Sequence record: OL310488.1
DNA: 64,000 nucleotides
Source: Escherichia phage EC101
Reading direction: 5' to 3' (one strand)
Part shown: in pieces, positions 59,998 to 63,990 of the stretch
Layout of the letters: every line of letters starts with the position of its first letter
Position numbering within the stretch: the stretch's first letter is position 1
Position numbers and translations under genes: made by a program
The notes under the pieces: generated by a model
What the model saw: the letters and a program-made list of their open reading frames with translations, nothing else
Told to the model about the DNA's origin: nothing
Database searches by the model: none

Positions 59998-61509
59998 TTA
60001 TAAATTAACTGTTTTCATTACGTAATTAAATTTTTCATCTGCGTAGCGCTGAATACGATCAATGCCGTGTTTTAAAAGATAGTTCAAGTGAACATATTTC
60101 TTTTTAGTATTAGCAGATTTTGGCTTGACACCACAGTCATCTATGAGGTCCCAGACTGTTGCGATTGTTTTAGAACCATGTTTACGTAATACGCGACCTA
60201 TTGTTTGCAATACAATAATTTTAGATTTAACACCGTGTGCTAAAACAACGTGATGCAGATTTTTAACTGAAATACCAGTAGAAAATACACCATAACTAGC
60301 TACTATAATTATTCCTTTACCGTTTTCAGCTAAGGTTTTCATTATATTGCGGGTTTCGGTATCAACTTCCCCTGATACGTAATAAACTTTATCGTATTCA
60401 TTTTTAATTAAATCGAAAATAGCTTTACCGTGCGATACGTGTTTAAACATGACAAAAGCGTTTTCATCTTTTTGTGCAAGCTTAATAGCTAATTTAGCGA
60501 TCCATTTATTTCTTTTACTAAGCCCAGTAATAATTTTTATTTCTTCTTGGTAAGTTTTTCCCTTTAATTTAGTAGTGAACTCATCGGGATAGCGAAGAAA
60601 AATACTATTAATTTTTAACTCAGTTACTTGTCCATCTTCCATTAATTTAGAGGTCGTTACTGGCTTAAATATTTCACCGAACATTCCAACATACTGCATG
60701 ATATTAGCTTTGCCATCACGTAATGAACCAGACAAACCGAATTTGAACATGCAGTTATTTAAACCTGATATGATGGATGAAATACTTTTTCCTGTAGCAA
60801 GATGGCATTCATCATTCATCATCATTCCAAACTGTGAGAACCATTCTTTCGGTTGTTTTACTACAGTTTGCCATGTACCAACAACGACCGGTGCATCATT
60901 TTTATATTTATCATCTTTTGATGCTCCACCACCGATTTTCTTTATCATTGCATGACTGAATAAACGATAGTCAACAAAGTCATCAGCCATCTGAGTTGTC
61001 AGAGCAGTTGTTGGAACAATAATAAGAATTTTGCCTTCATAATTTTCCAAATAATACCGAGCAAGCAAAGCTTGAATTAAAGATTTACCTGCGGATGTTG
61101 GAAGATTAAGAATTCTACGACGATTAACTAATCCTTCGAACACTGCATCTTTTTGATACCAGTGTGGTTCAATTCTTTTATTTCCTGAATAGATTTCTAA
61201 TTTAGAAAGCCATTCATCAAAATCTTTTCTTGATAATTCTTCTTTTTCGTTAATTTGTGGGTCAATCCAGGCTTTATAGCCAAAGTTATCACAGAACTTT
61301 TTAATTTGCCCGACTAAGCCGAATGGAAGAAGACGATTATAATCTAACAGACGGATTCGTCCATCCCAGTGGCCATATCTGTACTTCGGATTAAAACGAT
61401 ACCCATCAGCTTCAAAGCTAAAGAAATCACGGAGTTCATGAAATGTACTTTCTTCACAATCAATTCTCACGTGACTAAAATCATAAAAATGTACTTTAAT
61501 GTCAGTCAT
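59998..61509 (-). CDS. uvsW: UvsW DNA/RNA helicase (SF2)
   Basis: 503-aa ORF; Walker A GKS (LPTSAGKSL), DECH box (MMNDECH); T4 UvsW is 502 aa. Confidence 0.95.
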   Translation of the reverse strand: MTDIKVHFYDFSHVRIDCEESTFHELRDFFSFEADGYRFNPKYRYGHWDGRIRLLDYNRLLPFGLVGQIKKFCDNFGYKAWIDPQINEKEELSRKDFDEWLSKLEIYSGNKRIEPHWYQKDAVFEGLVNRRRILNLPTSAGKSLIQALLARYYLENYEGKILIIVPTTALTTQMADDFVDYRLFSHAMIKKIGGGASKDDKYKNDAPVVVGTWQTVVKQPKEWFSQFGMMMNDECHLATGKSISSIISGLNNCMFKFGLSGSLRDGKANIMQYVGMFGEIFKPVTTSKLMEDGQVTELKINSIFLRYPDEFTTKLKGKTYQEEIKIITGLSKRNKWIAKLAIKLAQKDENAFVMFKHVSHGKAIFDLIKNEYDKVYYVSGEVDTETRNIMKTLAENGKGIIIVASYGVFSTGISVKNLHHVVLAHGVKSKIIVLQTIGRVLRKHGSKTIATVWDLIDDCGVKPKSANTKKKYVHLNYLLKHGIDRIQRYADEKFNYVMKTVNL

Positions 61510-61538
61510 GTCTAAATACCATGTAATAAATATATCTA

Positions 61539-61546
61539 TATTTATA
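61539..61546 (-). promoter_or_regulatory. late promoter TATAAATA (minus strand) upstream of uvsW
   Basis: plus-strand TATTTATA 30 nt upstream of the uvsW start. Confidence 0.55.
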
Positions 61547-61559
61547 CTGAGGAAATATT

Positions 61560-62240
61560 ATGATAGATAAAGATTATATTGCAGAGCTGAAGGCTCTTGA
61601 TGATAACAAAGAAGCTAAAGCTAAATTAGCTGAATATGCTGAACAGTTTGGTATAAAGGTCAAAAAGAATAAATCTTTTGATAATATCGTTGTTGATATT
61701 GAAGAAGCCCTCCAGAAGCTCGCTAGTGAACCTATGCCGGAGACTGATGGGTTATCTATTAAAGACTTAATTGATGCTGCTGATGCTGCAGAGGGGTTAA
61801 AATATGACGATGAAGAAGTCAATCCAGAAGCAGCACTTTTGATTGATTCTCCGGTTAAATCTGACATTAAAATTGAAGTAGTAGAAACAGATAAAATTCC
61901 TGAAAATACCACTGTTTTAATTGAAGATACTCCTTTTGTTGAAGAAAAATTCGAACAGGCTGTAGCTGAGATTATTGAATCTGAAAAGCCGTCTGTATTT
62001 ACTCTTCCGGAAAACTTTAGCCCGAATCTTCAGTTGATTGGAAAAAATCCAGGATTCTGTACTGTTCCTTGGTGGATTTATCAATGGATTGCTGAAACTC
62101 CTGATTGGAAATCTCACCCAACTAGTTTTGAACATGCGTCAGCACACCAAACTTTATTTAGCTTAATTTATTACATTAACCGTGACGGATCAGTTTTAAT
62201 TCGTGAAACACGCAACTCTTCTTTCGTAACATTAAAATAA
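61560..62240 (+). CDS. inh: Inh, inhibitor of the prohead protease
   Basis: 226-aa ORF adjacent to hoc; length and synteny as in T4. Confidence 0.8.
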   Translation: MIDKDYIAELKALDDNKEAKAKLAEYAEQFGIKVKKNKSFDNIVVDIEEALQKLASEPMPETDGLSIKDLIDAADAAEGLKYDDEEVNPEAALLIDSPVKSDIKIEVVETDKIPENTTVLIEDTPFVEEKFEQAVAEIIESEKPSVFTLPENFSPNLQLIGKNPGFCTVPWWIYQWIAETPDWKSHPTSFEHASAHQTLFSLIYYINRDGSVLIRETRNSSFVTLK

Positions 62241-62249
62241 GGATAACTT

Positions 62250-63956
62250 ATGACTTTTACAGTTGATATAACTCCTAAAACACCGACAGGGGTTATTGAT
62301 GAAACTAAGCAGTTTACTGCTACACCCAGTGGTGAAACTGGAGGCGGAACTATTACATATGCTTGGACTGTAGATGATGCTCCACAAGATGGAGCTGAAG
62401 CAACTTTTGATTATGTATTAAAAGGACCTGCTGGACAAAAGACTATTAAAGTAGTTGCAACAAATACAGTTCCAGATACTGATGCTGAAACAGCAGAAGC
62501 TACTACAACTATCACAGTTCAAAATAAGACACAAACAACTACTTTAGCTGTAACTCCTGGTAGCCCTGATGCTGGAGTGATTGGAACTCCAATTGAATTT
62601 ACCGCTGCCTTAGCTTCACAGCCATCAGGTGCAAACGCTACGTATCAATGGCACGTTGACGGTTCTCCTGTAGACGAAGCAACTGACGCTACATTCAATT
62701 ACACTCCTGACACAAGCGGAGTTAAAAAAATCAAGTGTGTAGCTCAAGTAACTGCGGCAGATTATGATGCACTAAGCGTTACTTCTAATGAAGTATCATT
62801 GACTGTTAATAAAAAGACGCAGACGACTACCTTGGCAGTAACTCCTGATAGTCCTCCAGCTGGAGTGATTGGAACAGCCGTTGAATTTACTGCTGCCTTA
62901 GCTTCTCAACCTGATGGGGCATCTGCTACGTATCAGTGGTATGTAGATGATTCTCAAATTGGTGAAGCGACTTCTGCTACATTTAGCTATACTCCAACTA
63001 CAAGTGGAGTAAAAAGAATTAAATGCGTAGCGCAAGTAACAGCAACAGATTATGACGCAAAAACAGTTACTTCTAATGAAGTATCATTAACAGTTAATAA
63101 GAAGACACAGACAACTACGTTAGCCGTAACTCCTGCTAATCCTGCTGCCGGAGTAATTGGAACCCCAGTTCAATTTACTGCTGCCTTGGATTCACAGCCA
63201 CCAGGAGCGTCTGCTACGTATCAGTGGTATGTTGACGGTTCTCTGGTCGATGGAGAAACTACTACTACATTTAACTATACTCCTACCACAGTTGGAGCTA
63301 AAACAGTTAAGTGTGTAGCGCAAGTAACTGCAGAAAATTACAATGAAAAGGAAGTTACTTCTAATGAAGTATCATTGACTGTTAATAAGAAAACAATGAA
63401 TCCACAGGTTACATTGACTCCTCCTTCTATTAACGTTCAGCAAGATGCTTCGGCTACATTTACGGCTAATGTTACGGGTGCTCCAGAAGAAGCACAAATT
63501 ACTTACTCATGGAAGAAAGATTCTTCTCCTGTAGAAGGGTCAACTAACGTATATACTGTCGATACCTCATCTGTTGGAAGTCAAACTATTGAAGTTACTG
63601 CTGTCGTTACTGCAACTGATTACGATAGCAAAACTATTACAGCAGAAGGTCAAGTTCAGGTAACTGATAAAGTTGCTCCAGAACCAGAAGGTGAACTACC
63701 TTATGTTCATCCTCTTCCACATCGTACTTCAGCTTATATCTGGTGCGGTTGGTGGGTTATGGATGAAATCCAAAAAATGACCGAAGAAGGTAAAGATTGG
63801 AAAACTGAAGATCCAGACAGTAAATACTACCTGCATCGTTACACTCTTCAGAAGATGATGAAAGACTATCCAGAAGTTGATGTTCAAGAATCACGCAATG
63901 GATACATCATTCATAAAACTGCTTTAGAAACTGGTATCATCTATACCTATCCATAA
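62250..63956 (+). CDS. hoc: Hoc highly immunogenic outer capsid protein, expanded (five Ig-like domains plus capsid-binding C-terminal domain)
   Basis: 568-aa ORF; N- and C-terminal regions match T4 Hoc as recalled; internal near-identical 96-aa Ig-like modules. Confidence 0.85.
   Translation: MTFTVDITPKTPTGVIDETKQFTATPSGETGGGTITYAWTVDDAPQDGAEATFDYVLKGPAGQKTIKVVATNTVPDTDAETAEATTTITVQNKTQTTTLAVTPGSPDAGVIGTPIEFTAALASQPSGANATYQWHVDGSPVDEATDATFNYTPDTSGVKKIKCVAQVTAADYDALSVTSNEVSLTVNKKTQTTTLAVTPDSPPAGVIGTAVEFTAALASQPDGASATYQWYVDDSQIGEATSATFSYTPTTSGVKRIKCVAQVTATDYDAKTVTSNEVSLTVNKKTQTTTLAVTPANPAAGVIGTPVQFTAALDSQPPGASATYQWYVDGSLVDGETTTTFNYTPTTVGAKTVKCVAQVTAENYNEKEVTSNEVSLTVNKKTMNPQVTLTPPSINVQQDASATFTANVTGAPEEAQITYSWKKDSSPVEGSTNVYTVDTSSVGSQTIEVTAVVTATDYDSKTITAEGQVQVTDKVAPEPEGELPYVHPLPHRTSAYIWCGWWVMDEIQKMTEEGKDWKTEDPDSKYYLHRYTLQKMMKDYPEVDVQESRNGYIIHKTALETGIIYTYP
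62520..63383 (+). repeat. three tandem near-identical 288-bp coding repeats (Ig-like domain modules) inside hoc
   Basis: each unit begins AA(T/A)AAGAC(A/G)CA(A/G)AC(A/G)ACTAC(T/C)TT(A/G)GC(T/A)GTAACTCCTG and ends ...TCTAATGAAGTATCATT(G/A)AC(T/A)GTT. Confidence 0.85.
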
Positions 63957-63960
63957 TCAT

Positions 63961-63990
63961 AAGGGGCTTCGGCCCCTTTCTTCATTTTGA
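63961..63990 (+). terminator. intrinsic terminator (AAGGGGC-TTCG-GCCCCTT followed by T-rich tract)
   Basis: 7-bp stem with UUCG loop after the hoc stop. Confidence 0.7.

Follow-up and report, generated by a model that had tools for sequence, protein, structure and literature searches.

Hoc decorates the head of bacteriophage T4, with one monomer at the centre of each hexamer of the major capsid protein gp23 (155 per capsid), and is dispensable for growth. T4 Hoc, a protein of 376 amino acids (aa) encoded by a 1131 bp gene, consists of a first immunoglobulin (Ig)-like domain (D1), a single domain-2 unit, a final Ig-like domain (D-last) and a C-terminal capsid-binding domain, and thus has three Ig domains (PDB 5vf3, 8t1x, 8t9r; PMC10385173). 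Strings of Ig-like domains were described in 650 Hoc homologues, with up to 10 domains in Serratia phage Muldoon (Fokine et al. 2023, PMC10385173), PhiPNJ-9 has a characterised "variant Hoc" from which one domain is missing (PMC11853027), and the Hoc-like protein of Klebsiella phage PMBT63 has four Ig domains, in a paper which explicitly states that domain number varies among T4-like phages (PMC13435897). Binding of Hoc to mucin glycans or cell surfaces has been reported for T4, PhiPNJ-6 and PhiPNJ-9 (PMC9271167, PMC11853027). We analysed the hoc gene of Escherichia phage EC101 in a 64,000 nt stretch of DNA (sequence record OL310488.1, hereafter the window), where it occupies positions 62250-63956 of the plus strand and carries three tandem 288-bp units (A, B and C) of the domain-2 type. 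With a probability of about 80%, we interpret this gene as a natural long hoc allele of Tequatrovirus, in which units A-C are old domain-2 paralogues that behave as cassettes.

The sole open reading frame (ORF) at this position specifies 568 aa plus a stop codon, and the product, a highly immunogenic outer capsid (head decoration) protein, matched PHROG 1149 ("Hoc-like head decoration", E = 4.7e-175) in a PHROGs search and the T4 Hoc chains in the PDB (5vf3 and others, phmmer E = 2.2e-213). The best PDB stretch aligned aa 369-568 to T4 Hoc residues 177-376, spanning the C-terminal domain, while PHROG 21694 matched aa 504-568 (E = 1.8e-41); the protein thus combines a C-terminal domain homologous to T4 Hoc residues 281-376 with an N-terminal Ig-like string, as is characteristic of Hoc. 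A megablast search of the gene against 50,697 phage records gave 678 matching records, nearly all from T4-like coliphages and their relatives, with the closest being Escherichia phage vB-Eco-KMB26 at 99.9% nucleotide identity across the full 1707 bp, where the coding sequence (CDS) is annotated. Together with Pfam matches and conserved gene order (both described below), these matches identify the gene as hoc of a Tequatrovirus, in agreement with an earlier inspection of the letters and ORFs of the window (the sequence-only reading), which had also correctly put its length at 568 codons against 376 in T4.

Compared with T4 Hoc, the EC101 protein has the same gene position, D1, D-last and C-terminal domain, at 88-95% nucleotide identity, but contains three domain-2-type modules and five Ig domains, so two more 96-aa Ig-like modules account for its larger size, as had been proposed. 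Nucleotide identity to T4 hoc is 90.4% for D1, 89.2% for unit B against the single T4 unit, 88.2% for D-last and 95.4% for the C-terminal domain (dN, the number of nonsynonymous substitutions per nonsynonymous site, 0.009). At the protein level, domain 2 of T4 Hoc is 86% identical to unit B, and only 78-80% identical to units A and C.

Tandem Repeats Finder reported a single array at 62526-63395 with a period of 288, 3.0 copies, 77% matches and a score of 1005, and a separate repeat search gave three copies at successive spacings of 288 and 288 nt, with 76% and 79% identity to the reference copy. The corresponding units, each of 96 codons and in frame with the ORF, are unit A (62520-62807, aa 91-186, an Ig/PKD-like module), unit B (62808-63095, aa 187-282, which of the three is nearest to domain 2 of T4 Hoc) and unit C (63096-63383, aa 283-378), all on the plus strand; they start with (Q/N)(N/K)KTQTTTLAVTP and end with VTSNEVSLTV. 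The sequence-only reading had delimited these three consecutive units within 62520-63383 and assumed that they keep the reading frame, both of which held, as the ORF is intact; its further statement that they share very high nucleotide identity did not. Pairwise identity among the three units is 75.7%, 78.5% and 78.1% for DNA and 79%, 72% and 74% for protein, the three agree in only 68% of columns, and 30-45 of the 96 codons differ at the third position. Conservation is highest in the last 24 nt of the unit (92%), and the longest exact run for each pair of units is 23-30 nt, starts at unit position 258-259 at the 3′ end and encodes VTSNEVSL. The 23-nt boundary homology GTTACTTCTAATGAAGTATCATT revealed by this exact-run comparison is located at 62778-62800 in unit A, 63066-63088 in unit B and 63354-63376 in unit C, on the plus strand. 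The array is therefore real, far beyond chance and frame-preserving, yet not near-identical. No further copy of any hoc segment was found elsewhere in the 64-kb window by blastn or tblastn.

The divergence of the units was set against that of the phages using Nei-Gojobori estimates of synonymous divergence (dS) and of dN/dS. These were 1.09 and 0.13 for units A and B, 0.52 and 0.35 for A and C, and 0.72 and 0.21 for B and C, whereas dS between EC101 and T4 was 0.22-0.26 for the matching hoc segments and 0.09 for the adjoining inh gene. Since between-unit dS far exceeds that between the EC101 and T4 hoc genes (2-5 times), the units are several times older than the split of EC101 and T4, and are best described as old paralogues of T4 Hoc domain 2; the dN/dS values of 0.13-0.35 indicate that units A-C evolve under purifying selection. 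At the protein level they are 72-79% identical to each other, 50-53% identical to unit 1 and 37-42% identical to unit 2 of RB69 (Mosigvirus) Hoc, and as they are closer to each other than to the RB69 units, the expansion seems to be confined to the Tequatrovirus lineage, or else partial homogenisation of the units may have taken place there.

High DNA identity had led the sequence-only reading to propose a recent duplication, by which the units would have arisen in tandem in the EC101 lineage, would still be nearly identical, and would therefore be unstable in copy number. The tandem, in-frame arrangement of units of equal length is what such an event would leave, and the strongly conserved 5′ and 3′ unit ends mimic high identity by eye, a way in which conserved repeat ends can generally make diverged repeats seem near-identical. 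This explanation is nevertheless very unlikely and was rejected, as the units share 76-79% of their nucleotides, their dS of 0.52-1.09 is 2-5 times the divergence of EC101 and T4 hoc, and each unit has a counterpart of 99-100% identity in other phages. Furthermore, among 124 alleles (four reference alleles and 120 protein clusters drawn from genomic and metagenomic data), none contained two units with more than 84% aa identity (0/124), and hence no fresh duplicate was present in this set. The array was accordingly not assigned to the class of recent near-identical tandem duplicates.

The expected variation in copy number between isolates was borne out by the public alleles, in which hoc spans step by 288 bp: 843 bp (280 aa, 0 units) in JQD51, 1131 bp (376 aa, 1 unit) in T4, 1419 bp (472 aa, 2 units) in U115, ESh33 and RB27, 1707 bp (568 aa, 3 units) in the EC101 window and KMB26, and 1995 bp (664 aa, 4 units) in slur03. 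An even-step sample of 60 of the 678 matching records had approximately 31 with one unit, 17 with two, 2 with three and 1 with four, and the 124 proteins contained one, two, three and four units in 81, 32, 10 and 1 cases, respectively. Single-unit alleles are thus the commonest, and are mostly B-like, with some nearest to A or C. Similar steps of approximately 95 aa were seen in other Tevenvirinae lineages in IMG/VR (279/282, 367-377 and 470-472 aa), alongside giants of >1100 aa. Clustering of the units was threshold-dependent, with 22, 8, 4 and 2 clusters at distances of 0.10, 0.15, 0.20 and 0.25, respectively, and for this reason clean unit types defined by clustering were rejected, and nearest-unit and segment comparisons were used instead.

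Several public records contained variants of the locus. The hoc gene is split into two or three CDS in MZ501066 (FriedrichMiescher), OR887633, MZ170041 and MZ234041, and several such split Tequatrovirus records have spans of 1420 or 1132 nt, one base more than unbroken genes; either frameshifts or errors of sequencing account for this, in a gene that is non-essential. In JQD51 (PV204681), the zero-unit hoc (1201-2043; D1, D-last and the C-terminal domain) is annotated as "hypothetical protein", and the label "Hoc-like head decoration protein" is given to a small gene just downstream (2145-2339), at the position of gp24.3 in RB69, which looks like an annotation slip. Finally, the proteins P0086 (567 aa) and P0038 (472 aa) have usual lengths, with inner units that are only ~50-58% identical to A, B or C, or match them very poorly, and so further module types circulate at the same position.

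As short-read genomes can misassemble repeats, and some public hoc records are frameshifted, the third unit or the unit order of EC101 could in principle be an assembly artefact. Misassembly is unlikely because the longest exact run between units is only 30 nt, below the typical read length; moreover, the 1707/1713-bp architecture was present in at least 13 records, which form the top 13 of the ranked megablast list, one of them 99.9% identical to the window, 568-aa proteins were also present in ENA and Logan assemblies, and the frame is intact. Taken together, this makes an artefact exceedingly improbable.

Comparison of alleles with different copy numbers indicated that whole units have been exchanged. 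Each unit of the window has a counterpart of 99-100% nucleotide identity in the same relative position of other phages, and precisely one complete unit separates the A-B-C allele of the window from the public A-C and A-B alleles. The U115 allele is A-C, without unit B, and is 99.3% identical to the window in unit A (2 mismatches) and 100% identical in unit C, D-last and the C-terminal domain. The left-anchored mismatch-free match of U115 to the window reaches gene position 551, and the right-anchored match runs from the stop codon back to position 817 with no mismatch, so that the two overlap exactly in the 23-nt boundary homology (529-551 in unit A, 817-839 in unit B), and U115 keeps the last 7 nt of unit B (AACAGTT) ahead of unit C. 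We therefore read this junction as the footprint of a single in-register event that removed or added exactly 288 bp. ESh33 is A-B, without unit C, with both of its units 100% identical in DNA to those of the window, and has zero differences over 588 nt, after which its D-last is only 92% identical. In CHD2BS1, D1 and unit A are 100% identical to the window. Unit C of the window is 98.6% identical to the fourth unit of slur03. D1 is mosaic, that of the window being only 86-87% identical to D1 of U115 and ESh33. The second units of CHD2BS1 and slur03 are chimeras that resemble B at the head and C at the tail. Unit order varies among the three-unit alleles, some being A-B-C and others having a chimera in the middle and then a third unit of C-like or B-like type. 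Because alleles with differing copy numbers, such as U115 and ESh33, share units that are 99-100% identical, in-register recombination swaps or deletes whole modules at a far higher rate than mutation alters them. Overall, these comparisons show the gene to be a mosaic, in which old, diverged modules are re-assorted and lost via homologous recombination at conserved boundaries.

A one-way process might also generate such a series, if an ancestral array of at least four units had decayed by independent deletions between the short boundary repeats, with alleles differing solely by these deletions and without gain of units or exchange between phages. Deletion between short direct repeats is a known class of mutation in T4, shrinkage would be tolerated since hoc is non-essential, and the last 7 nt of unit B retained at the U115 A-C junction fit deletion from an A-B-C parent. 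However, the segments of the EC101 gene have different nearest relatives, namely CHD2BS1 for D1 and unit A, ESh33 for units A and B, and U115 from unit C to the 3′ end, each of which is only 86-92% identical in another segment, and therefore exchange between phages is required. Deletion alone is also at odds with three-unit alleles that have different unit orders, with the existence of chimeric units, and with single-unit alleles being the commonest and mostly B-like, with some nearest to A or C. We consequently regard one-way decay as unlikely.

Some further observations concern mosaicism at and next to the gene. The inh gene of the window is nearer to that of U115 (dS 0.022) than to that of KMB26 (dS 0.044), despite the 99.9% identity of the KMB26 hoc gene, and the differing nearest relatives of inh and hoc thus show local mosaicism adjoining hoc. 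The segment encoding the C-terminal domain (63672-63953; RB69 locus 1988-2270) has ~95% nucleotide identity to both T4, of the same genus, and RB69, while the Ig-encoding part of RB69 hoc was too diverged for megablast. The idea that this domain in RB69 is nearer to the window than that of T4 was rejected, as identity over the last 285 nt is 94.7% for RB69 and 95.4% for T4. The similarity of the C-terminal domain in RB69, T4 and EC101 reflects either a very strong constraint on this one domain or genetic exchange across genera.

Our favoured explanation, a natural long allele with old paralogues that behave as cassettes, may operate as follows. Because the ends of the units are conserved at the DNA level, recombining two different units in register, whether inside a single genome or across co-infecting phages, would add or remove exactly 288 bp and keep the frame, and the outcome would be a population-wide series of alleles with 0-4 units in several unit orders. 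As its capsid-binding domain is near-identical to that of T4, one copy of EC101 Hoc would be expected at each gp23 hexamer centre, bound via the C-terminal domain, with its string of Ig domains extending away from the capsid as a fibre that may adhere weakly to glycans or other surfaces. With two extra modules, this fibre would be approximately two domain lengths longer than that of T4, for which a length of roughly 180 Å is reported (PMC10385173), and would offer two more potential binding modules. The adhesive role that the sequence-only reading attached to Hoc derives from the literature on T4 and its relatives (PMC10385173, PMC9271167, PMC11853027).

Several points weigh against this explanation. 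The direction of the events is ambiguous, since A-C could have arisen by deletion from A-B-C, or A-B-C by crossing of A-B with A-C, and approximately 130 alleles were typed, out of the 678 matching records. For EC101, the capsid location, the longer fibre and the binding would all follow from homology with T4. Outside the predicted strands lie 20 of the 32 variable positions and 24 of the 64 constant positions of units A-C, which may fit variation at the surface, although this enrichment of variable residues in loops is weak (Fisher p = 0.03, three sequences). The AlphaFold2 model described below was built from a shallow alignment of 10 close relatives, and its inter-domain geometry is unreliable (predicted template modelling score, pTM, 0.45).

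A wider extension of the cassette reading is conceivable, although we consider it doubtful. The domain-2-type modules may form a recombination-driven cassette system, with the 23-30-nt boundaries as in-register crossover sites at which co-infecting phages re-assort the number (0-4) and type (A, B, C and chimeras) of modules, which would tune the length, valency and glycan specificity of the fibre to mucosal or environmental niches. If so, selection would maintain the boundaries at least in part for their DNA sequence, and not for the protein alone.

The layout of the protein follows that of T4 Hoc outside the array. The N-terminal Ig-like domain D1 (62250-62519, aa 1-90) is the counterpart of T4 Hoc domain 1, the divergent final Ig-like domain D-last (63384-63671, aa 379-474) that of domain 3, and the capsid-binding domain at the C terminus (63672-63953, aa 475-568) was assigned by T4 homology, all on the plus strand. 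A profile built from the three units scored 181-186 bits on each of units A, B and C (185.8 bits on unit A) and 33-35 bits on aa 2-82 and aa 380-466, and with these scores D1 and D-last are real but more divergent domains, in line with the prediction of a more divergent fourth domain and N-terminal domain; their aa identity to units A-C is 35-38% for D1 and 31-34% for D-last. Pfam PKD (PF00801) scored 50.2 bits against a cut-off of 23.5 bits and matched in three stretches, the best of them at aa 292-361 in unit C, which places the protein in the PKD/Ig-like superfamily; Ig_2, Ig_3 and PKD_4 likewise exceeded their Pfam cut-offs in the 568-aa protein, and Ig_3 and I-set matched D-last at aa 385-469.

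Ig folds had been anticipated from the sequence, and structure prediction by AlphaFold2 agreed with this, as the model (mean predicted local distance difference test score, pLDDT, 83) contains five all-beta sandwich domains, mostly with pLDDT 85-94 and with 81-92 for D1. Units A, B and C are thus each predicted to fold as an Ig-like beta-sandwich. The C-terminal domain had a pLDDT of 44-66, which is as expected because this domain folds on the capsid. The top Foldseek matches in the PDB were strings of Ig domains (DSCAM, MDGA1, ICAM-1 and ICAM-5; E = 1e-14 to 1e-10), and since the top 50 were eukaryotic Ig strings and not Hoc, this result backs the fold and is not Hoc-specific. The crystal structure of RB49 Hoc was not retrieved by the PDB sequence search that matched T4 Hoc.

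The gene order uvsW-inh-hoc in the window is that of T4, and was also present in the annotated loci of U115, slur03, KMB26 and RB69. Upstream of hoc are uvsW (59998-61509, minus strand, 503 aa), encoding a UvsW-type DNA helicase according to PHROGs, and inh (61560-62240, plus strand, 226 aa), labelled "minor head protein inhibitor of protease" in PHROGs. In the order characteristic of hoc (uvsW, inh, hoc, then gp24.3, gp24.2 and rnlB), the upstream part lies in the window, and gp24.3, gp24.2 and rnlB, which fall beyond its end, were found downstream of hoc in the locus of KMB26, which is 99.9% identical, and also in those of U115, slur03 and RB69. A homing endonuclease gene, segE, is absent between uvsW and inh in the window, where the gap is 50 nt (61510-61559), and is present in the stretch upstream of hoc in the record of T4 strain 147.

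The stop codon of inh overlaps the Shine-Dalgarno sequence of hoc (TAAGGA, 62238-62243, plus strand), 6 nt before the ATG as read from the sequence, and no separate promoter was evident between inh and hoc on inspection; hoc is presumably co-transcribed with inh. No exact T4 late promoter TATAAATA was present on the plus strand upstream of inh or hoc, where only the one-mismatch sequence AATAAATA was found (61525-61532), and the one exact TATAAATA match nearby, on the minus strand at 61539-61546, points towards uvsW. The whole window contained 11 late-promoter motifs against 9 expected, which is not above chance. Starting 5 nt past the hoc stop codon is an intrinsic-terminator-like hairpin (AAGGGGC UUCG GCCCCUU) followed by a T-rich run (63961-63988, plus strand, likewise read directly from the sequence). 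This UUCG hairpin, which T4 has in identical and RB69 in nearly identical form, probably terminates transcription of the inh-hoc unit.

The "bacteriophage adherence to mucus" model is built on Hoc, which is also in wide use as a display platform. Natural alleles that are near-identical apart from having 0-4 copies of one Ig module are a ready-made set for studying the effects of fibre length and module number, and the series could be used to address mucus adherence, epithelial-cell uptake and the immunogenicity of therapeutic T4-like phages. For annotation, records that name this gene "capsid and scaffold protein" or "PKD domain protein" should read hoc instead. The feature itself is real but ordinary, and its specialist interest is low.

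Beyond T4, the closest counterparts of the EC101 gene are public 568-aa alleles, found in vB-Eco-KMB26 (OR539218), YUEEL01, ECML-123-2, vB_Eco_OMNI12, UGKSEcP1, ESh16, ESh26, ESh34 and ESh36, and annotated as "capsid and scaffold protein" or "Hoc-like head decoration". They share the 1707-bp architecture at 93-99.9% nucleotide identity; KMB26 shows essentially no difference from EC101, and in other three-unit alleles the middle unit differs or is chimeric. Hoc alleles with other numbers of units (JQD51, U115, ESh33, slur03, PhiPNJ-9, Muldoon and PMBT63) have the same string of ~96-aa Ig-like domains on one capsid-binding domain. More distantly, tandem Ig-like and BACON arrays on other phage surface proteins are described as likewise being surface-exposed beta-sandwiches in variable tandem number on virion proteins, but belong to different carrier proteins and domain families from the Hoc units, and are thought to mediate weak carbohydrate adhesion (Fraser et al. 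2006; de Jonge et al. 2019 for crAss-like phages; both as cited in PMC13370021 and PMC9271167). The finding is known in kind and in sequence, because variable Ig-domain number in Hoc is already published and the 568-aa allele is already in GenBank for about a dozen phages. The Hoc literature examined describes domain number, and neither unit-level exchange nor the 23-nt junction was found in it; the unit-level picture, with units 99-100% identical across copy numbers and a junction within a 23-nt homology, is an incremental addition to the known variation of T4-like Hoc proteins.

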